NCBI GenBank assembly: GCA_005239895.1
Contig: SBBB01000027.1
Span: 376 to 64,375 of the forward strand
From: a bacterium
GTDB taxonomy: Bacteria; Patescibacteriota; Patescibacteriia; SBBB01
Direction of reading: 5' to 3'
Length of the DNA: 64,000 nt
Under the pieces are notes generated by a model. The model ran no database searches, was not told where the DNA came from, and saw nothing but the letters and a program-made list of their open reading frames with translations. Below, in pieces: positions 1-53,712 of the stretch; position 1 is the first letter of the stretch, and every line of letters begins with the position of its first letter. The translations under genes and the position numbers were made by a program.

Positions 1-774
1 ATTATTTCTAAAGCTATTGAATCTGTTTTAGGTCAATCAGTTGCAGATTGGGAATTAATTATTATTGATGATGATTCTTCAGATGATACTGAGTTGATTA
101 TTTCGCAATATATCAAACAGGATTCCAGAATAGTCTATCTAAAAATGAATAAAAAAAATAATCTGCAATCTCTAATTAATTTTGGACTCCAAGCAGCTAA
201 AGGGCAATATATAGCCAGAATTGACGATGACGATGTTTGGATAAATAAAGACAAACTTAAGAAACAAATCAACTATCTAGACAACAATCCAGAATGTAAA
301 CTAATAGGCTCTTGGGCTGTAGTTATTAATCAAGAAGATAAGGAGCTTTTTTATTACGATCTACCTTCCACTGATCAAGAAATTAGGAAACATATATTAT
401 TAAGAAATTTTTTTATTAACTCTAGTGTTGTTTTTGAAACCGAGGGTGCCCGCTTGGTTAATGGTTTTGACGAACAATTAAGTCTTAGCGGTGATTATGA
501 CATGTGGTTAAAATTAGGGAAATTAGGTAAATTATATATATGGCCAGAATATTTGACAGCCTTAAGATATGATGACAACAACCTTAGAAAGAAAAGAATT
601 ATTAGGACTAATGATTCATTACAAATCATTAGGAAATACCGCGATGCTTATCCTGGTTTTTATGTTTCTTTACTGGCCAACTATTTAAAATTAATTTATC
701 TTTTTGTTATGAGAATTGGTGTTATTGATAAATTTTTATATAGACTTAGAGTGCAGCGCAATTTTAAGTTATAA
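1..774 (+). CDS. glycosyltransferase family 2 (5' end truncated by window edge)
   Basis: Frame is open from nt 1 in the same frame as ORF 94..774. N-terminal GT2 signature (..LIIIDDDSSDDT..) and ARIDDDDVW motif present. Confidence 0.7.
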   Translation: MISKAIESVLGQSVADWELIIIDDDSSDDTELIISQYIKQDSRIVYLKMNKKNNLQSLINFGLQAAKGQYIARIDDDDVWINKDKLKKQINYLDNNPECKLIGSWAVVINQEDKELFYYDLPSTDQEIRKHILLRNFFINSSVVFETEGARLVNGFDEQLSLSGDYDMWLKLGKLGKLYIWPEYLTALRYDDNNLRKKRIIRTNDSLQIIRKYRDAYPGFYVSLLANYLKLIYLFVMRIGVIDKFLYRLRVQRNFKL

Positions 775-811
775 AATACAGGCTATTATTAGGTGTTTTA
801 ATATTGCAATT

Positions 812-2446
812 ATGTCTAAAAAGCAAAGAAAATATATTTTTGTGGTGGGAGGAGTTTTATCAGGCGTTGGTAAGGGAATAACCTCCGCTTCACTGGCCCT
901 TATTTTAAAATCAACCGGACTAAAAGTAACCGTACTTAAAATTGATCCTTATATTAATGTGGATGCTGGAACCATGAATCCTATTGAACATGGCGAGGTT
1001 TTTGTAACGGATGACGGAGATGAGACAGACCAAGATATTGGTAATTATGAGCGTTTTTTAAATACAGATTTAGGAGCTATAAATTATATGACAACCGGGA
1101 GAGTTTATTCTAGTGTCATTAATAATGAGCGATCCATGAAATATGGAGGTAAATGTGTTGAAGTTGTTCCGCATATTCCCGAAGAAGTGATTAAGCGTGT
1201 TCGTTTTGCTGCTGATCATTATGACGCGGATGTAACTATTATAGAAGTGGGTGGTACGGTGGGAGAGTATCAAAATATTTTATTTTTAGAAGCTGTGCGT
1301 ATAATGAAATTTAGTAATCCTTCTAGTGTTGCTACGGTATTAGTAAGTTATTTGCCTGTTCCCGAGCATCTGGGAGAAATGAAAACCAAACCCACTCAGC
1401 AAGCTGCTCGTTTACTGTATTCAGCTGGTATTAGTATGGATATGATTATAGCTAGGGGACACGCGCATTTAGATCAGCCCCGTTGTAATAAATTAGCGAT
1501 TGCAACCGGAGTGCATCCGAATTATATTTTTTCAGCGCCAGATGTTAAATCTATTTATGAATTACCATTAGTTTTAGATGAACAGGGAGTGGTTCCTAAA
1601 TTATTAAAGTTATTAAAATTAAGATTATATCCAAGCAAATTGGATGCTTGGAAATCTTTTGTAAAGCGTATTAAAAATAGTAAAAAAACAGCGCGTATTG
1701 CTGTGATTGGTAAATATTTTAGTACAGGCAATTATACTTTATCAGATTCATATATTTCCGTTATTGAAGCTGTGCGTCATGCTGCGTGGTATTATAACGC
1801 GCAAACAGTTTTAACTTGGTTGGATTCTGAAGTTTATGAAAAAAATCCAAACGCATTGCAAGATTTAAAAAATTACGATGGTATTATTGTTCCGGGCGGC
1901 TTTGGAACCCGTGGTATTGAAGGAATAATTCAAGCTATTAGTTTTGCTCGTAAGAATAAAATTCCATATTTAGGATTATGTTATGGTATGCAATTAGCAG
2001 TGGTAGAATTTTGTCGTAATGAGTTGGGACTAGAAGGTGCTCATACTAAAGAAATTAATAAAAAGACCAAACATCCTGTGATTGATATTAATCCTTATCA
2101 ATCTAAAAATGTAAATGCTGGACGCTATGGTGGCACCATGCGTTTGGGAGCTTATCAGTGTGAATTAAAAAAGGGGAGTTTAACTGCGAAAGCTTATGGT
2201 GCATTACAGATTTCAGAAAGGCATCGTCATCGTTATGAATTTAATAATAAATATCGCGAGCAAATCGAAACGTGTGGCATGAGTATTGTAGGCGTGAACA
2301 CCGAATCCAATTTAGTTGAAATTATTGAAATATCAGATCATCCGTTTTTTGTGGGTACTCAATTTCATCCGGAATTCAAATCGCGGCCTTTAAACCCGCA
2401 CCCTTTATTTAGAGAATTTATTAAAAAAGCCTTAGTGTTGCGTTAA
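812..2446 (+). CDS. pyrG: CTP synthase
   Basis: MSKKQRKYIFVVGGVLSGVGKGI N-terminus, synthetase domain, and C-terminal glutamine amidotransferase (GLCYGMQ, HPEF). ATG at 812 chosen inside the longer track ORF. Confidence 0.95.
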   Translation: MSKKQRKYIFVVGGVLSGVGKGITSASLALILKSTGLKVTVLKIDPYINVDAGTMNPIEHGEVFVTDDGDETDQDIGNYERFLNTDLGAINYMTTGRVYSSVINNERSMKYGGKCVEVVPHIPEEVIKRVRFAADHYDADVTIIEVGGTVGEYQNILFLEAVRIMKFSNPSSVATVLVSYLPVPEHLGEMKTKPTQQAARLLYSAGISMDMIIARGHAHLDQPRCNKLAIATGVHPNYIFSAPDVKSIYELPLVLDEQGVVPKLLKLLKLRLYPSKLDAWKSFVKRIKNSKKTARIAVIGKYFSTGNYTLSDSYISVIEAVRHAAWYYNAQTVLTWLDSEVYEKNPNALQDLKNYDGIIVPGGFGTRGIEGIIQAISFARKNKIPYLGLCYGMQLAVVEFCRNELGLEGAHTKEINKKTKHPVIDINPYQSKNVNAGRYGGTMRLGAYQCELKKGSLTAKAYGALQISERHRHRYEFNNKYREQIETCGMSIVGVNTESNLVEIIEISDHPFFVGTQFHPEFKSRPLNPHPLFREFIKKALVLR

Positions 2447-2457
2447 TTTGTAGTACT

Positions 2458-2496
2458 ACTTAGTCGCCTTGCCACTAAGTCGCCTTGCCACTAAGT
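2458..2496. repeat. REP-like hairpin, two tandem copies of CGCCTTGCCACTAAGT (ACTTAGT-loop-ACTAAGT stem)
   Basis: Directly visible tandem unit immediately 3' of pyrG. The same 23-nt hairpin recurs at 15828, 47707 and 50233. Confidence 0.7.
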
Positions 2497-2593
2497 AGAT
2501 TACACAAGGTGGATATATATTATTGCCCCACCGTCACATTTTATGCTAATATACCAAGTATTAAATCATTAAATCATTGAATCATTATTTAAT

Positions 2594-3973
2594 ATGTTAC
2601 AAAATGCAAAACAGGTTTTAGTAGTTTTATTTATTATAAGTGTGTTAGTTATTGGAATTGCTGGAAGAGAAACATTTGCATCTTCTCATCATCTTAAAGC
2701 ATCCGAAAAAATAGTTCAAAACATGATGGAGAAGTATTCTAAAATTAATTCTTTAGAGTACTCAGGAGAATTAAAAGCGCAAACTAAGGGTCATGATGCG
2801 AGCAATTTTGTGCTTAATTTTAATGGGATGTCGGATGACAAAGATGTAAAAAATATTAAAGGGGTGTTGTCCTTGAATATTGCCGCTGATCAGGCATCTA
2901 GGGGTGAATCTGCTGATGAACCTACTAAGAAGAAATTTAATTTAGGATTAGATATAAGGTTTGTTAACAAAATAGTTTACGTAAGGCTGAATAATATCGA
3001 TATTCCCTCTTTTGGTAAATCTAAAGACAAAGAAATTTCCGAGATTACTAGTCTAAAAAATCAGTGGATTAAAATTGATATTGAAGCTTTAGCAAAATCT
3101 CCAGAACTAAAAGAATTAGGTTTAGATATAAAATTTAAAGAAGCGGAAAAACAAACCGAACTATCACCAGAACGGGTTAAAAAATTAGAGGAGGTTTTTA
3201 AACAGGCAAGAATTTTTAAAGTCGTAAAAAGATTTTCTGATAAAACCATTAATAATATACCAACTTACCATTTTAAATTTGAATTTGATAAAAATGGCAT
3301 AATAGAACTAATAGCTGGTATTTCAGAGGTTATGTTCGATAAAGAATCTGGAGAGGCAAAAATGGAGAGAGGAGAAATGCTTAAAGTGTATAGTAGGAAT
3401 TTTCAAGATATAAAACTTCCTAAGGGAGAGATTTGGATAGGTAAAAAGGATTTATTACCGCATAAAATTTATTTTGGTGTTAGGCCCAAGGTTGCTGTAA
3501 AAAGCGAGTTATCTACTAGGTATGATTTTACTCTTTTATTTAAAAATTTTAATAAACCAGTTCAGGTTGATGTTCCAGCTAATACTAAATCACTAGAAGA
3601 TATTATTGGTCCTAAACTTGCTGACGCCAGGCAAAAATCGCGCGATGCTAAACGCGTAGCTGATATGAAACAATTACAAACAGCTTTAGAGCTTTATTTT
3701 ACTGAAAAAAATGATTATCCACCTACGGCTGTTATAGATGATGGTGATCCAAAAAATACTCCTTTAAAATTATCTACTGGTAATGGTTTTTCTACTGTTG
3801 CTTCAGGTACAACAAATATGGAGTTTGTTCCAGAAAATCCGCAACCCAATGGCATACCGTATGTTTATAACAGACTAAGTCCAACAGATTTCACTATAGA
3901 TTTTAGTCTTGAAAAAGGTTTCGGAAATTTGTCAGCCGGACATCATGTTACCACTTCGGGTGGTATTAGGTAA
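2594..3973 (+). CDS. hypothetical membrane-anchored protein with C-terminal type IV pilin-like globular segment
   Basis: N-terminal TM helix. C-terminal ...ARQKSRDAKRVADMKQLQTALELYFTEKNDYP... matches the conserved post-helix region of type IV pilins/pseudopilins. Confidence 0.5.
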   Translation: MLQNAKQVLVVLFIISVLVIGIAGRETFASSHHLKASEKIVQNMMEKYSKINSLEYSGELKAQTKGHDASNFVLNFNGMSDDKDVKNIKGVLSLNIAADQASRGESADEPTKKKFNLGLDIRFVNKIVYVRLNNIDIPSFGKSKDKEISEITSLKNQWIKIDIEALAKSPELKELGLDIKFKEAEKQTELSPERVKKLEEVFKQARIFKVVKRFSDKTINNIPTYHFKFEFDKNGIIELIAGISEVMFDKESGEAKMERGEMLKVYSRNFQDIKLPKGEIWIGKKDLLPHKIYFGVRPKVAVKSELSTRYDFTLLFKNFNKPVQVDVPANTKSLEDIIGPKLADARQKSRDAKRVADMKQLQTALELYFTEKNDYPPTAVIDDGDPKNTPLKLSTGNGFSTVASGTTNMEFVPENPQPNGIPYVYNRLSPTDFTIDFSLEKGFGNLSAGHHVTTSGGIR

Positions 3974-4990: not shown

Positions 4991-6523
4991 ATGAACCAAT
5001 TTAGTGTATTTATAATTTTATTAGAAGTTTTAGTGGGTATAGTTTGTTTTTGGGTTGGTTATTTAATACGTAAGTATAAAAATGAAAGGGATATTAATTC
5101 CGCTAGTTTGCGCTCGGAGCAAATTATTTTGGATACTAAACAACAATCACAGACTATGTTGGACGACGCTCACACCAAAGTCGAAAAACTTTTGGGTTCA
5201 GCTAAAAGTGAGTCGGATAAAATTTTGAGCGGAGCTATAAGCAAACAAAGAGAGCTGGAACAGCGCGAAAGATCGTTTAGTGATCAAATGCTTAAATTTC
5301 AAGATAGGCAACAAGAGTTATATAATAAAAATATTGTTTTAGAAAAAGAGTTGTTGGACGTTAAACAGAGCAAACTCAAACAACAAGCAGAATTAGAGAG
5401 AATTAGCGGTTTGAATCAAGAAAGCGCCAAGGCTTTACTTTTAGAAAATGTGGAGCGTCAGTGTCAGGAAGATTTATTAGGTAAGCTAAAGAAAATAGAA
5501 ACTAATGCTGAAAGTGTTTTAGCGGCTAAAGCTCAAAATATTTTAATTAACGCTGTTCAAAGATGCGCCATGTCTAATGTGTCTGAAATTACTTCTACTA
5601 CATTTGTTTTGCCATCGGATGAAATAAAAGGAAAGATTATTGGAAAAGAAGGCCGAAATATTAAAACCATTGAACATTTAACAGGCGTAGATTTAATCAT
5701 AGACGATACTCCGGGAGTTATTATTATTTCCGGATTTAGTCCGGTGCGCAGACATATTGCTAAACGTGCTTTAGAAAAATTAGTTTCCGATGGCAGAATT
5801 CATCCGGCTCGAATTGAAGAAGTTATTGCGGAAGCTAAAAAAACTATTACCAATGAAATTATTAAAGCTGGGGAAGACGCGCTTGCTGAATTAGAAATTA
5901 GTGGCATTGATCCTAAATTAGTGCAGATTTTAGGGCGCTTAAAGTTTCGTACTAGTTATGGACAAAATGTTTTACAGCATTCCATGGAGGTTGCTTATTT
6001 AGCTAAATTGTTAGCTGAGGAATTAAAAATTGATCCTAAGGCTGCTGCCCTAGGCGGATTATTTCATGATATTGGAAAAACCGTTGATCACGATGTGCCG
6101 GGCGCTCACACGGTTTTGGGTTATGAAATTATGAAAAGATATGGTTTCCCTGAAGAGATTGCTTATATGGCCATTGCTCATCACGAAGATAGTCCCAAAA
6201 CTTTATTGGGCATAGTTGTTAAAACCGCTGACTCTATTTCTGGTGGTCGTCCTGGAGCTAGGGGAGATACGCGCGAAAATTACATTCAACGTTTAACAGC
6301 TTTAGAGCAGTTGGCTGGAGAATTTTCAGGCGTGTCGCATACTTACGCTATTCAGGCTGGAAGAGAATTAAGGGTGTTTGTTACTCCGGAAGAAATTAAT
6401 GATTTAGAGGCTTTTAAATTAGCGCAAGATATTGCGCGTAAAATAGAGCGCAGTTTAAAGTATCCTGGTGATATTAAAGTTACCATTATTAGAGAAACTC
6501 GCATTACGGAATACGCTCGTTAA
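4991..6523 (+). CDS. rny: ribonuclease Y
   Basis: N-terminal TM, coiled-coil, KH domain (GKIIGKEGRNIKTIEHLTG), HD domain (LFHDIGK). Confidence 0.95.
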   Translation: MNQFSVFIILLEVLVGIVCFWVGYLIRKYKNERDINSASLRSEQIILDTKQQSQTMLDDAHTKVEKLLGSAKSESDKILSGAISKQRELEQRERSFSDQMLKFQDRQQELYNKNIVLEKELLDVKQSKLKQQAELERISGLNQESAKALLLENVERQCQEDLLGKLKKIETNAESVLAAKAQNILINAVQRCAMSNVSEITSTTFVLPSDEIKGKIIGKEGRNIKTIEHLTGVDLIIDDTPGVIIISGFSPVRRHIAKRALEKLVSDGRIHPARIEEVIAEAKKTITNEIIKAGEDALAELEISGIDPKLVQILGRLKFRTSYGQNVLQHSMEVAYLAKLLAEELKIDPKAAALGGLFHDIGKTVDHDVPGAHTVLGYEIMKRYGFPEEIAYMAIAHHEDSPKTLLGIVVKTADSISGGRPGARGDTRENYIQRLTALEQLAGEFSGVSHTYAIQAGRELRVFVTPEEINDLEAFKLAQDIARKIERSLKYPGDIKVTIIRETRITEYAR

Positions 6524-6527
6524 TTTT

Positions 6528-7331
6528 ATGCTAAAAGTTATTATATTTGGTGATTTGATGGGCAAACCTAGTCGTAAAGCCCTGCGCATGATTTTACCAG
6601 ATATTAAAAAAGAATATCAGCCAAATTTAATTGTTGCTAATGTTGAAAATTTAACGCACGGTTCGGGAGTGAGTCCGGAAGCACTTAAGGAAATATCAGA
6701 ATGTGGTGTGAATTTTTTCACTTCTGGCAATCATGTTTGGAATCGAAAAAAGGATATTTATAATATTTTTCAAGAAAATAAAATTGATATTTTGCGCCCG
6801 GCTAATTATCCTCCTGGCGTGTCCGGAGTCGGATATAAAGTAATAAGTATTGACCAATATACTATATTAATGATAAATTTAATAGGAAGGGTTGGTATGT
6901 ATCAAAGTTTTGATTGCCCTTTTCGTGCTTTAGATGCTATATTAACTGAACATAAAGGTATGAAATTCAATGCTATATTGGTTGATTTTCATGCTGAGGC
7001 TACCTCGGAAAAGGTGGCTTTGGGGCATTACGCTAGTGGAAGAGTAACAGCTGTTTACGGAACTCATACTCATGTGCCTACAGCTGATGCTCATATTTTT
7101 TCTAATGGCACAGCGTATGTTACGGACATTGGAATGGTGGGACTTAAGGATTCGGTTATTGGGGTTGATAAAGTTAATATTATTAAAACCTTTTTAACTC
7201 AAATAAAAGAAGAACATATCATACCCGATAATGGTTTAGTTACTGTTAATGCCATTTATTTAACAGTTGATCCTGCAACTGGTAAAGCTCTAGATATTCA
7301 AAGAATACAGAAAGAAGTTTTAGTGTCTTAG
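6528..7331 (+). CDS. ymdB: YmdB-family 2',3'-cyclic-nucleotide phosphodiesterase (metallophosphoesterase)
   Basis: MLKVIIFGDLMGKPSRKAL ... GNHVWN ... motifs. Directly downstream of rny, as in Bacillus. ATG at 6528. Confidence 0.85.
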   Translation: MLKVIIFGDLMGKPSRKALRMILPDIKKEYQPNLIVANVENLTHGSGVSPEALKEISECGVNFFTSGNHVWNRKKDIYNIFQENKIDILRPANYPPGVSGVGYKVISIDQYTILMINLIGRVGMYQSFDCPFRALDAILTEHKGMKFNAILVDFHAEATSEKVALGHYASGRVTAVYGTHTHVPTADAHIFSNGTAYVTDIGMVGLKDSVIGVDKVNIIKTFLTQIKEEHIIPDNGLVTVNAIYLTVDPATGKALDIQRIQKEVLVS

Positions 7332-50918: not shown

Positions 50919-51251
50919 ATGCGTCGTAAAATTTACAACAAATTAATAAGAGATAAAATACCTGAGATTATTAAAAAGAATAAGGCTGTTCCTAAAGTTT
51001 TAGTTTTGAACGCTAAGCAATTCAAAATTGCGTTAAAAGAAAAACTAATAGAGGAAGCGAAAGAATTATTAGCAGCCAAAACTAATAAAGAAATTTTAAA
51101 TGAATTAGCAGATATTTTTGAGTTATTAGAGTCAATTGCCTTAAATAATAATATAACCATGAATCAAATTAAAAAACAAAAAGAGAAAAAGAAAAAAGAG
51201 CAAGGTGGTTTTGATAAAAAACTTTTTTTGAAATATGTTGATGAACTATAA
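50919..51251 (+). CDS. MazG-like nucleotide pyrophosphohydrolase (small all-alpha NTP-PPase)
   Basis: YNKLIRDKIPEII ... EE.KEL ... ELADIFELLE ... GGFDKK pattern. Confidence 0.55.
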   Translation: MRRKIYNKLIRDKIPEIIKKNKAVPKVLVLNAKQFKIALKEKLIEEAKELLAAKTNKEILNELADIFELLESIALNNNITMNQIKKQKEKKKKEQGGFDKKLFLKYVDEL

Positions 51252-51370
51252 GGATGCATAATTTTAAGTTTAATTTTTTTTGATTACAAGCATCAACTAC
51301 TCTTGACAAAGTGTCAATTATCCTGTATAATATATACTTGTTAGTTGAAATTTTGATTTAACAGGCTAAG

Positions 51371-51506
51371 GCGACGGTAGCTCAGCGGTAGAGCGCTTGT
51401 TCAGTATAGAGGAGAGTCACCGTCACACTTTTTGGTCGTAATTAATGACCGAAACTCTTTACGTTTTACGACAAGAGGTCGGGGGTTCAAATCCTCCTCG
51501 TCGCTC
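51371..51506 (+). tRNA. tRNA-like gene interrupted by a ~63-65-nt insertion in the anticodon loop (candidate intron; isotype unresolved)
   Basis: Canonical acceptor GCGACGG/TCGTCGC, U8A9, D-arm GCTC-AGCGGTA-GAGC, anticodon stem CTTGT (51396-51400) / ACAAG (51471-51475) separated by 70 nt, variable AGGTC, T-arm GGGGG-TTCAAAT-CCTCC. Confidence 0.5.
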
Positions 51507-51525
51507 CTAGCCTTAAAAAGATTGA

Positions 51526-51603
51526 GGCAATGTAGCTCTATTATGAGCACTTTCTGTTCGCAGAAAGGGGATTACGGGTCAATGATTCGTAATTGCATTG
51601 CCT
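51526..51603 (+). ncRNA. candidate small structured RNA / complex terminator downstream of the interrupted tRNA
   Basis: Closing stem AGGCAATG/CATTGCCT enclosing three hairpins, including CTTTCTG-UUCG-CAGAAAG tetraloop and ATTACG...CGTAAT. U-rich tract follows. Confidence 0.25.
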
Positions 51604-51709
51604 TTTGCCATATTTATTATTTTTGTTTTAAAATTTTAGGGTTTTTATTTATTTTGATCTTGAAAATATCACGGACGCCATAGCACACTGAATTAAATGC
51701 TATGGCGTT

Positions 51710-52591
51710 TTAGTATAGTTCGAATTGTAGTTCAGGTTTACCAAACTCTTTTAAGGTGTGTTTAACCGAAGCTTCAGCTGCCGCACGGAGTTTGTTAGGA
51801 TTTCTGGTTAGTTCGTGTATATCCATATTAGGTGGCCAAAGAATATGTATATTCTCAGCATTATTTGCAAAATCAATTCCTTTAACAAAGTTTTGATGTC
51901 GCAAAAGTGTTTTTGTTTTTATAACACTGGTTAAGTGTGTTAAAAACAAATTTACGAATATACGTTCAGTGAAAGTTGCTATGTGTTTTTTTTCTTGGGG
52001 ACAATTTGGTAACACCAACACATGAGTTGGTGAAAAGTCTCTCATTACTTTTTGAATTGGAAAAGGTAAAGCTATACCTCCATCCATATAAAGACCATTA
52101 TTAACTTTTAAGGGTTTTTTGTATGCTAGGGGTATGGCTGAAGAAGCATATAGTGCTGACCAAGGTGATGGGTTGGCTTTTTTTACATCTAGAAAATGTC
52201 CTGTTCCGTTTATATCTGTTACTCCCACAAAAAAATCAGATGTTGTCCTGTAAACTGCATTGATATCTAATTTTTTAGATCCCATGGAAGTAGTATTTTC
52301 AATTATCGAGGCATTCATCAAGAAAGGAAAGTTTTTAAGGGATATATATTTTGAAGAGGCGAAAGGTTTATAGTAGATTGAATTACCTGTTTTAATTGAT
52401 TCTAGTCCTGCTAAATGATATGCTCCTACCCATGCTCCTGTTGAAATGCCTACGACAATGTCAACGGCATATCCTAGTCCCATAAGGTGCAACGCGTAAC
52501 AAGCTGCCGCGCTATTAACACCCAGATTACCTCCTCCCAAAATGAGGAGAAGTATTTTAATGTTTTTGTGCCGAGGATCATTAGCATCCAT
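51710..52591 (-). CDS. patatin-like phospholipase
   Basis: GGGNLG oxyanion motif, GISTGA (GxSxG) nucleophile elbow, DGG. ATG at 52591 preferred over the track's TTG at 52642. Confidence 0.75.
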   Translation of the reverse strand: MDANDPRHKNIKILLLILGGGNLGVNSAAACYALHLMGLGYAVDIVVGISTGAWVGAYHLAGLESIKTGNSIYYKPFASSKYISLKNFPFLMNASIIENTTSMGSKKLDINAVYRTTSDFFVGVTDINGTGHFLDVKKANPSPWSALYASSAIPLAYKKPLKVNNGLYMDGGIALPFPIQKVMRDFSPTHVLVLPNCPQEKKHIATFTERIFVNLFLTHLTSVIKTKTLLRHQNFVKGIDFANNAENIHILWPPNMDIHELTRNPNKLRAAAEASVKHTLKEFGKPELQFELY

Positions 52592-52770: not shown

Positions 52771-52799
52771 TTGACAATTTGAGTAGATTTTGATATAAT
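52771..52799 (+). promoter_or_regulatory. consensus sigma70-type promoter (-35 TTGACA 52771-52776, 17-bp spacer, -10 TATAAT 52794-52799)
   Basis: Perfect hexamers. ATG at 52808 lies about 8-9 nt after the -10, implying a leaderless or near-leaderless mRNA. Confidence 0.5.
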
Positions 52800-52807
52800 T
52801 TAATTAT

Positions 52808-53032
52808 ATGAAATTAAGACCAGAGTTATTTTGGGATACGAATATTAAAAATATTGATTTAAGAAAACATGCTCAGTATATTATTGAAAAAGTAGCTGAT
52901 TTTGGTCACGATAATGAAGTGCGCTGGGTATTAAATTTATATAGTAAAAAATTATTAAGAAAAGTTATTGCTAAATCTAGGTGTTTACGTCCCGAAACAA
53001 AAGCTCTATGGGTTTTACTATTAAAAAAATAA
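52808..53032 (+). CDS. small conserved partner protein of an AbiEii-like nucleotidyltransferase (paralog of 30859..31119)
   Basis: 74 aa. LFWDTN... pattern shared with the first copy. Confidence 0.4.
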   Translation: MKLRPELFWDTNIKNIDLRKHAQYIIEKVADFGHDNEVRWVLNLYSKKLLRKVIAKSRCLRPETKALWVLLLKK

Positions 53033-53046
53033 ACAATAATCAAGAT

Positions 53047-53712
53047 ATGGTTTTGGGTGATGTACATTGGCATTATGAAACATTACCGCGCAGTACAAAA
53101 AAGGCTTTTATTTTTTTGTCTGAACAAAAGTGGTTAAAAAAGTCAAATTGGTATTTAGCTGGTGGTACGGCTTTAGCTCTTTGGTGTGGCAATCGTAAAT
53201 CTTTGGATTTAGATTTTTTTATTAAAGATAAAGATTTTACTGACAATCAGGTCTTGAAATATTTTATAGGAAATAAAAATTGGAAACTTGAATTAAATAA
53301 AGAGAATACAATATTTGCAAAATTATTTAATGCTAAAATAAGTTTTATTAGTTATCCATTTTTTGAACCTAGACAGGATTTAGTGTGGCATGGGTCGGTT
53401 CGTGTATTGCATCCGATTGATATTGCAGTTATGAAAATTATAGCCATATCTCAGCGCGGTAAAAAGAGAGATTTTTTTGATTTATATTGGTGCGCTCATA
53501 ATATTGAACTTTTGACAAGAACAATTAAAAGACTTAAAGTCCAATATCCATTGGTTGTGCATAATTACCATCATATTTTAAAAAGTTTAGTATATTTTGA
53601 TGATGCAGAAAATGATCCTGAGCCAGAAATTTACTTTAATGCCAGTTGGAGTAAAGTAAAAAAGTTTTTTACTAAAGAGATTTCTATTATTGCGGATCGT
53701 ATTTTGCGTTAA
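53047..53712 (+). CDS. AbiEii/DUF1814-family nucleotidyltransferase (second copy)
   Basis: AGGTALALWCGNRKSLDLDFF and RGKKRDFFDLYW motifs. ATG at 53047 chosen (track ORF opens at GTG 52981, overlapping the small ORF). Confidence 0.6.
   Translation: MVLGDVHWHYETLPRSTKKAFIFLSEQKWLKKSNWYLAGGTALALWCGNRKSLDLDFFIKDKDFTDNQVLKYFIGNKNWKLELNKENTIFAKLFNAKISFISYPFFEPRQDLVWHGSVRVLHPIDIAVMKIIAISQRGKKRDFFDLYWCAHNIELLTRTIKRLKVQYPLVVHNYHHILKSLVYFDDAENDPEPEIYFNASWSKVKKFFTKEISIIADRILR

Follow-up and report, generated by a model that had tools for sequence, protein, structure and literature searches.

A tRNA-shaped RNA with a structured rod in place of its anticodon loop in a Patescibacteria contig: a possible non-decoding tRNA mimic

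What might a bacterium encode in a gene that has every part of a transfer RNA (tRNA) except an anticodon loop? Such a gene lies at positions 51371-51505 of the 64-kb stretch of contig SBBB01000027.1 analysed here in full (the window; all coordinates are window positions, on the + strand unless stated). The original prediction, made from the letters of the DNA, had described a tRNA-like gene interrupted by a structured insertion in the anticodon loop, and had offered either a small intron, possibly of the bulge-helix-bulge (BHB) type, or a disrupted tRNA pseudogene as its explanation. From the features described below we consider that the locus may instead encode an expressed, non-decoding tRNA-shaped RNA, either a mimic of a tRNA or a tRNA serving as a scaffold, and we give this reading a probability of roughly 0.4.

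The tRNA body, its insert and its promoter

The Rfam tRNA model RF00005 scores 51371-51505 at 49.7 bits, where the gathering score is 29 (E = 1.2e-7 over the whole window). The alignment spans all 71 model positions and places 69 inserted nt in the anticodon loop. The elements of the tRNA body are the following:

51371-51505, + strand: tRNA-shaped RNA with acceptor, D arm, split anticodon stem, variable loop, T arm and discriminator U (Rfam RF00005)
51371-77 / 51498-504, + strand: acceptor stem GCGACGG/TCGTCGC, six Watson-Crick pairs and one G.U
51380-94, + strand: D arm GCTC-AGCGGTA-GAGC, read from the sequence
51396-51400, + strand: 5' strand of the anticodon stem, CUUGU, pairing with ACAAG at 51471-75
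51401-51470, + strand: stretch of 70 nt in place of the 7-nt anticodon loop (sequence, Rfam alignment and fold)
51471-51475, + strand: 3' strand of the anticodon stem, ACAAG (Rfam alignment and fold)
51481-97, + strand: T arm GGGGG-TTCAAAT-CCTCC, read from the sequence

Residues U8-A9 follow directly after the 5' strand of the acceptor stem, the variable loop is AGGTC, and the nucleotides of the tertiary contacts at the elbow are all intact (G18-G19, the T-loop UUCAAAU, U8-A14 and G15-C48). The discriminator is T at 51505 and CCA is not encoded; since CCA is also missing from two of the three ordinary tRNA genes of the window, its absence is uninformative. All four arms announced by the original prediction are thus in place, and its perfect 5-bp anticodon stem (CTTGT/ACAAG) is split by exactly 70 nt. 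The program ARAGORN, which had been proposed as a check, was run and made no call for the gene.

By similarity, the nearest ordinary tRNAs are those for Val, Thr, Pro and Gly, and the anticodon stem is the same as in an ordinary tRNA-Pro(CGG) from another locus. G1-C72, C2-G71, G3-C70 and U73 resemble glycine identity elements. The amino-acid identity of the RNA is not assignable because no anticodon is present, the loop having been replaced, and the earlier statement that the anticodon cannot be assigned stands.

The stability of predicted folds was expressed as a z-score. The isolated arm 51396-51475 folds as one continuous rod (z -2.0; 5 of 200 shuffles equally stable), and the arm with its flanks (51364-51512) reaches z -2.9. 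At the base of the rod the 5-bp anticodon stem is extended by a U.G pair to 6 bp and is followed by a GUA/UAC mini-helix, beyond which the fold of the isolated arm contains:

51411-17 / 51454-60, + strand: helix H2, 7 bp, 5' strand GGAGAGU and 3' strand ACUCUUU
51418-51430, + strand: 13-nt bulge in the 5' strand, CACCGUCACACUU
51431-39 / 51445-53, + strand: terminal hairpin H3, 9 bp, UUUGGUCGU, loop AAUUA, AUGACCGAA
51454-51463, + strand: 3' strand of H2 followed by UUACG, likened to the UUAYCG / CUAC junction motif of YrlA and of the modules described below

The anticodon stem is predicted to stack coaxially on the insert and to run on into its rod, and the 3' arm of H3 carries GACCGA (51447-52). 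Two structures had been named as signs that the insert is internally structured, an AGAGT/ACTCT stem and a GGTC-GTAATTAAT-GACC hairpin; both recur in the predicted fold, the former within H2 (51413-17 / 51454-58). The CACCGUC of the bulge (51418-51424) is, in addition, complementary to GACGGU in the 5' strand of the acceptor (51373-51378), and in minimum free energy (MFE) folds of longer constructs this pairing displaces the D arm and the acceptor stem, which may be an alternative conformation or chance.

The gene is preceded by a perfect promoter:

51303-51331, + strand: sigma-70 promoter TTGACA-17 nt-TATAAT, 12 of 12 consensus positions

It sits 40 nt upstream of the tRNA-like gene, with a predicted transcription start near 51338. 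Only two perfect sigma-70 matches occur on both strands of the window (128 kb of sequence), the second at 52771, and the ordinary tRNA-Leu gene of the window has an 11/12 promoter at the same relative position.

An intact tRNA body, a consensus promoter and an anticodon loop replaced by a coaxial rod make a tRNA mimic the most economical reading of the locus. According to this reading, the consensus promoter would drive a transcript with a complete tRNA body, which may provide stability, folding and access to, or recognition by, tRNA-binding enzymes, while the rod would be the functional part, presumably a protein-binding or base-pairing module. By analogy with the class of tRNAs that carry Y RNA-type modules (see below), the RNA could hold a partner protein on enzymes or on tRNA-like substrates; alternatively, it could act as a decoy for tRNA-targeting enzymes.

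Intron readings and the capacity to decode

Whether an intron might account for the insert was assessed with the Rfam models (intron families checked at E <= 1 over 51200-51700) and with an explicit search for BHB motifs. A group I or group II intron was rejected: the insert, at 63-70 nt, is far shorter than the published bacterial tRNA group I introns of 184-894 nt (PMC13011429) and no intron model matched, in agreement with the earlier remark that it is too short for group I. At the boundaries 51400|51401 and 51463|51464 a U precedes the insert and a G ends it, as the rule for group I introns has it (PMC13011429), but with only two bases involved such agreement would often arise by chance. 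The tRNAs with group I introns described in Patescibacteria and Cyanobacteria (Nakagawa et al. 2026, PMC13011429) share with the window RNA the host phylum, an interruption of the anticodon loop, a 5' exon ending in U and an intron (putative in the window RNA) ending in G, and they too are missed by standard tRNA finders; however, their introns of 184-894 nt have a P1-P9 core and match RF00028, which the window insert does not, and their excision restores a canonical anticodon loop, whereas that of the window insert would not.

A BHB motif has two 3-nt bulges on opposite strands with a 4-bp helix between them, and its cleavage restores a 7-nt loop. The BHB search returned one in-register candidate (51404/51469), whose helix GAGG/UUUU consists of three G.U pairs and one A-U and whose splicing would leave a 13-nt loop, and it too was rejected. 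Archaeal and eukaryal BHB introns are likewise short (tens of nt), structured and located in the anticodon arm, and many true archaeal tRNAs of this type were recovered by the pattern scans described below. The window host is, in contrast, bacterial, as indicated by the sigma-70 promoter and the Patescibacteria-type proteins, and the locus has no credible BHB. The tRNA splicing endonuclease is not known in bacteria (bioRxiv 10.1101/312249).

Nor does any excision lead back to an ordinary loop. With canonical placement the loop begins U-C-A-G-U-A and position 33 is C, as had been pointed out, and an excision site at 37/38 would give U-C33-AGU-A. Removal of 51401-51463 would leave UUUUACG, with the stop-reading anticodon UUA and C37. 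Every trimming to 7 nt results in C33 or C37, where a decoding tRNA requires U33 and a purine at 37. Because no excision restores a canonical loop, the RNA as it stands is, to judge from its sequence, unable to decode.

A decoding tRNA is in our estimate very improbable; its small intron would have to be of a novel type, outside group I/II and BHB, and to splice itself or be spliced by a putative nuclease and ligase. The complete tRNA body and the perfect anticodon stem speak for it, as do the group I-like ends of 51401-51463 and the unusual frequency of tRNA introns in Patescibacteria (PMC13011429), and many insert-bearing tRNAs of phages and bacteria keep an intact 7-nt loop beside the insert, so that splicing is conceivable. 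These points are set against the shortness of the insert, the lack of an Rfam intron match or a convincing BHB, the defective loop left at every junction and the absence of an RtcB gene from the window; the helix formed by leader and trailer (see below) also argues against normal end processing. The earlier proposal of a BHB-type or other small intron is thus not borne out.

Two other identities were tried and rejected. A transfer-messenger RNA (tmRNA) or mini-tmRNA is contradicted by an acceptor with G3-C70 instead of G3.U70, by a full D arm and by the lack of an ARAGORN or Rfam call; a short frame in the insert (GUC...UAAUGA) lacks a start codon, and AT-rich DNA often contains stop codons. 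A repeat, a miniature inverted-repeat transposable element or a remnant of an insertion sequence does not fit an insert that occurs as a single copy in the window and has neither terminal inverted repeats nor a target duplication.

The transcript and its gene neighbourhood

The features that flank the tRNA-like gene within the presumed transcript are:

51364-51368, + strand: leader GGCUA, pairing with the trailer UAGCC at 51508-51512 in the MFE and centroid folds of 51364-51512
51524-51605, + strand: second cloverleaf-shaped four-way junction, MFE -36.6 kcal/mol, z -5.4, 0 of 200 shuffles equally stable
51675-51711, strand unassigned: hairpin ACGCCATAGCA...TGCTATGGCGT followed by TTTT, read from the sequence

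The pairing of leader and trailer lengthens the acceptor helix past the tRNA ends, and the 306-nt transcript region as a whole folds with z -5.15. The second cloverleaf consists of a closing helix, a UA-GCUC..GAGC-A arm, a 7-bp stem with a UUCG loop and an 11-bp hairpin, with a U-rich tract directly 3' of it. Its first arm is tRNA-like, but D- and T-loop motifs are missing from the element. Rfam contains no family that it matches, and neither the collected loci nor the phage collection nor the contigs of the neighbour genes yielded a homologue. It is separated from the tRNA-like gene by 20 nt without a terminator and probably belongs to the same transcript. The hairpin at 51675-51711 is likely a two-way terminator, common to the convergent patatin gene; a similar hairpin lies 3' of the patatin gene in a relative (L246).

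This arrangement bears on another explanation, namely that the tRNA shape is a processing signal for ribonuclease (RNase) P or Z, or a stability signal, for the downstream cloverleaf, or that the rod is excised by RNase III in the manner known from ribosomal RNA (rRNA), leaving a nicked tRNA. One promoter followed by two tRNA-derived structures with no terminator between them agrees with it, as does the higher stability of the downstream element. Intervening sequences of bacterial 23S rRNA replace terminal loops, and the rod of the window RNA does likewise. A further locus counts on the same side: at L210 (1650-1766, - strand) an AT-rich tRNA-like element has its anticodon loop replaced by a rod (GUC..GAC..CGAAAC). 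It lies inside a match to large-subunit rRNA (1-3348, - strand), in a bacterial 23S gene about 860 nt longer than the matched part of the model, and appears to sit in an rRNA insertion. On the other side, a processing signal leaves the 70-nt structured arm unexplained, the downstream element has no homologue among the loci searched, and the pairing of leader and trailer would hinder RNase P. We regard this explanation as quite unlikely.

Upstream of the locus lie a peptidase-S51 gene and a gene for a MazG-like pyrophosphohydrolase; downstream follow the convergent patatin gene, a DUF6922/AbiEii pair and a nucleotidyltransferase gene. No flanking gene has an evident RNA function. The window has 34% GC, and the homologues of its proteins bear Patescibacteria or Parcubacteria names. 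The other perfect promoter (52771-52799, + strand) drives the DUF6922 and AbiEii genes (52808-53712), a toxin-antitoxin pair with a nucleotidyltransferase toxin located about 1.3 kb from the tRNA-like gene. Relatives of the AbiEii toxin modify tRNA 3' ends; no evidence beyond this proximity links AbiEii to the window RNA, and no dedicated search for such a link was made.

Insert-bearing tRNAs elsewhere and the place of the window RNA among them

In order to place the insert among comparable loci, genome, metagenome and viral collections were scanned by DNA pattern for D-arm and T-arm consensus sequences 65-95 nt apart (one scan of genomes, one of metagenomes and two of viruses). The genome-wide pattern allowed only 2-4 nt between TAGCTCAG and GGTAGAGC and was blind to the 7-nt D loop of the window RNA; this spacing was corrected in the metagenome and viral scans. 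Hundreds of insert-bearing tRNAs were recovered, together with archaeal intron tRNAs and duplications at integration sites, and the insert was compared with about 370 loci and with the phage collection. Some matches proved, by the Rfam YrlA model, to be junctions between tandem classical YrlA genes beside rsr and rtcB.

Complete tRNAs with modules of 40-90 nt in the anticodon arm are common, occurring in many bacterial phyla and at 73 phage loci. In 18 sequences compared, compensatory changes are abundant in the 7-bp acceptor stem that these tRNAs have of their own. The module opens with an outer helix and continues with a bulge in the 5' strand whose last bases are CUUG. Next comes a hairpin that has G-N-C-C-G-A, including a bulged C, on its 3' arm, then the return strand and UUAYCG, and finally what is left of the anticodon stem together with a 7-nt loop. 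The motifs contacted by Ro60 are GGUCCGA/CUUGAC in vertebrate Y RNAs and GNCGAA in YrlA, whose genes lie within 4 kb of rsr/Ro60 on the same strand (Chen et al. 2014, PMC4201824). Judged by these motifs, the bulged helix of the tRNA-embedded modules is the Ro60-binding helix of Y RNAs. The main groups of loci (L numbers are those of the comparison set) are:

L120 5096-5517 (rsr at 5511-7196), L071 6803-7211, L052 4334-5070, L037 367-489 and L004 6846-6973: non-permuted tRNAs with the Ro60-type helix (CUUG../..GNCCGA) in the 5' strand of the anticodon stem
L046, L058, L061, L075, L090, L098, L108, L225, L283, L291 and L299: second family, a hairpin followed by (A)CAGCAA
L069 1602-1843, L142 156-251, L205, L124 and L041 2132-2245: Bacteroidota family, UUACC..GGUCAA..UUACUUC
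L354 2004-2361, L270 8973-9084, L271 6456-6572 and L274 11620-11738: examples from the viral loci L264-L366, tRNA-like genes of phages

Members of the first group, often in arrays, lie directly beside TROVE+vWA_Ro60 genes in Nostoc, Sorangium, Kofleriaceae and others; in cyanobacteria and myxobacteria they comprise up to about 7 copies directly upstream of these genes and keep a 7-nt anticodon-like loop. The second family, found in Lachnospiraceae and phages, is consistently located beside DUF2828+DUF7788 proteins, which weakly cross-match the Ro60 profile. Members of the Bacteroidota family also keep the anticodon loop and terminate arrays of tRNA genes; RtcB genes lie a few kb away at most, and the flanking DNA collected contains no TROVE gene. 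The 73 tRNA-like genes of phages, with inserts of 40-70 nt, include several further families, for example one with ..GCAUAUAACGUUCCUA.. in a gene resembling tRNA(UCC). In the collected DNA no Ro60 or RtcB gene lies beside these further families, and their inserts match no Rfam family. YrlA RNAs have been described as circularly permuted tRNAs with a closed acceptor stem, and 'much longer' acceptor stems were noted in cyanobacteria (PMC4201824; Wang et al. 2018, bioRxiv 10.1101/312249). These primary YrlA papers make no mention of the non-permuted form beside Ro60 that was observed here in cyanobacteria, myxobacteria, Bacteroidota, Firmicutes and phages.

How close does the window RNA come to these modules? 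A relaxed structural descriptor of the module gave one match in the window (51412-51464) against 0.245 expected per Markov-random window, and GACCGAAAC, on the 3' arm of the distal hairpin (51447-55), has five of the six bases of the G-U-C-C-G-A in GGUCCGA, with A for U at the second position. Covariance models of the family (R2 and R3) do find distant members, namely myxobacterial, actinobacterial-type and phage loci (L262, L257). Two further likenesses were discarded as evidence. The phage locus L258 shares the 9-mer GACCGAAAC with the window insert, but chance alone predicts about four such coincidences of 9-mers among the inserts collected; and the regular expression behind the likeness to L210 (GUC..GAC..CGAAAC) was written post hoc.

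Several results weigh against a tRNA mimic of this kind. The descriptor was itself written post hoc, and of 32 known members it recovers only 16. Where the family has a bulged C in the motif, the window RNA has a paired one; GNCGAA is not matched exactly, and the G of GCCG that is invariant in the family is an A in the window RNA, giving a fully paired ACCG. The non-permuted modules branch from the 5' strand of the anticodon stem (at about position 29/30) and keep a 7-nt loop, whereas in the window RNA the insert begins only after the complete 5' strand CUUGU and stands where the loop would be, no 7-nt loop being present in the predicted fold. R2 and R3, built from Ro60-linked modules only and iterated twice, gave no match at 51396-51475 (E <= 10, filters off); since these models are sequence-heavy the failure is not decisive, but it does count against membership of the family. 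No TROVE, DUF2828 or RtcB gene was found among the open reading frames (ORFs) of the window, where Ro60 and DUF2828 were sought with our own Rsr hidden Markov model and BLASTP. No similar insert occurs in the roughly 370 loci or the phage collection, and the RNA is absent beside the closest homologues of all three flanking genes used as synteny queries (patatin, 55-65% amino-acid identity; peptidase S51, 63-67%; MazG-like, 77-92%). Since no relative was found in the searched loci and contigs, covariation speaks neither for nor against the rod, and conservation lends no support to a function. A BLAST search of phage genomes returned only a 30-nt match to the D arm, and an identical copy of the RNA in an independent assembly (L241) probably comes from the same population.

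An orphan RNA, with no homologue by sequence, covariance model or synteny, in a variable neighbourhood makes a disrupted tRNA gene a serious rival. According to this explanation, an insertion or expansion of about 63-70 nt in the anticodon loop has left a non-functional, decaying gene whose old promoter is still active. The destroyed anticodon loop and the missing ARAGORN call fit such a gene, and the gene order around the patatin and DUF6922/AbiEii genes differs in all the contigs of relatives examined. Decay is harder to reconcile with a perfect promoter, conserved tertiary nucleotides that are all intact, an insert that stacks on the anticodon stem as a continuous rod, a complementary leader and trailer and a second stable structured element downstream. 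In addition, about 300 nt of dead sequence would be unusual in a compact AT-rich genome, and the insert has no terminal inverted repeats, target duplication or second copy in the window. The pseudogene put forward by the original prediction hence keeps the lack of any detectable relative in its favour and has the promoter, the tertiary nucleotides and the stacked insert against it; on balance we consider it somewhat unlikely.

By the comparative data, a non-decoding mimic similar to the bacterial Y RNAs is at least as likely as the intron and the pseudogene proposed earlier. That Ro60 specifically is bound by the window RNA appears doubtful. It is also unlikely that the RNA is a working member of a large, essentially undescribed class of complete tRNAs with a module, the first from Patescibacteria and with a partner other than a Ro60 encoded nearby, or, as a variant, that it holds a new mini-intron outside group I/II and BHB.

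If the window RNA is functional, a genome-reduced Patescibacterium spends one of its strongest promoters on a non-decoding tRNA look-alike, which would suggest that the RNA either works with a protein in a partnership so far unrecognised or decoys enzymes that target tRNAs, in a phylum whose RNA biology is already unusual for its frequent rRNA and tRNA introns. If it is a pseudogene, it is a minor curiosity. Full-length tRNAs with Ro60-type or other modules are common in bacteria and phages and are missed by ordinary tRNA finders; this wider class bears on the origin of Y RNAs from tRNAs and on the targets of RtcB/Ro60 'RNA repair' loci, and the pattern may deserve more attention than the single locus in the window.

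Among known systems, engineered RNAs offer the same replacement of the loop. In a tRNA scaffold the tRNA body gives folding, processing and nuclease resistance. Such 'tRNA scaffold' RNAs, in which a structured RNA replaces the anticodon loop, were reportedly described by Ponchon and Dardel in 2007; they are synthetic, however, and the payload of the window RNA is only putative. The non-permuted, module-bearing tRNAs of Nostoc (L120/L071), Sorangium (L037), Bacteroidota (L069/L142), Lachnospiraceae (L046/L090) and phages (L263/L262) resemble the window RNA in ending at a 7-bp acceptor and in their canonical D and T arms. They are likewise independent small genes or members of arrays, and they share with it an outer helix, a 5' bulge (theirs ending in YUUG), a hairpin with a GNCCGA 3' arm and a UUAY junction.

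The classical permuted YrlA (RF02553) was rejected as an identity, its topology being wrong and its Rfam model giving no match at the gathering score or at E <= 1, while the same model matches L044, L039, L009 and L074. The two RNAs are nevertheless alike in several respects. Both have tRNA-like D and T arms with the nucleotides of the tertiary contacts, both lack an anticodon loop and are non-decoding as far as their architecture indicates, and in both the anticodon stem leads through a UA-containing junction to a long helix with an internal loop or bulge and to a distal helix with GNC(C)GA. They differ in that YrlA ends in the Ro60-binding helix and has its acceptor closed by a loop, whereas the window RNA ends at the acceptor and has its distal helix closed by a loop, and in that YrlA lies within 4 kb of rsr, whereas the 64 kb of the window contain no TROVE gene. 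The window RNA is thus unusual for a bacterium, but it is best filed with the tRNA-like non-coding RNAs, among which YrlA is the closest, and not as a new category.

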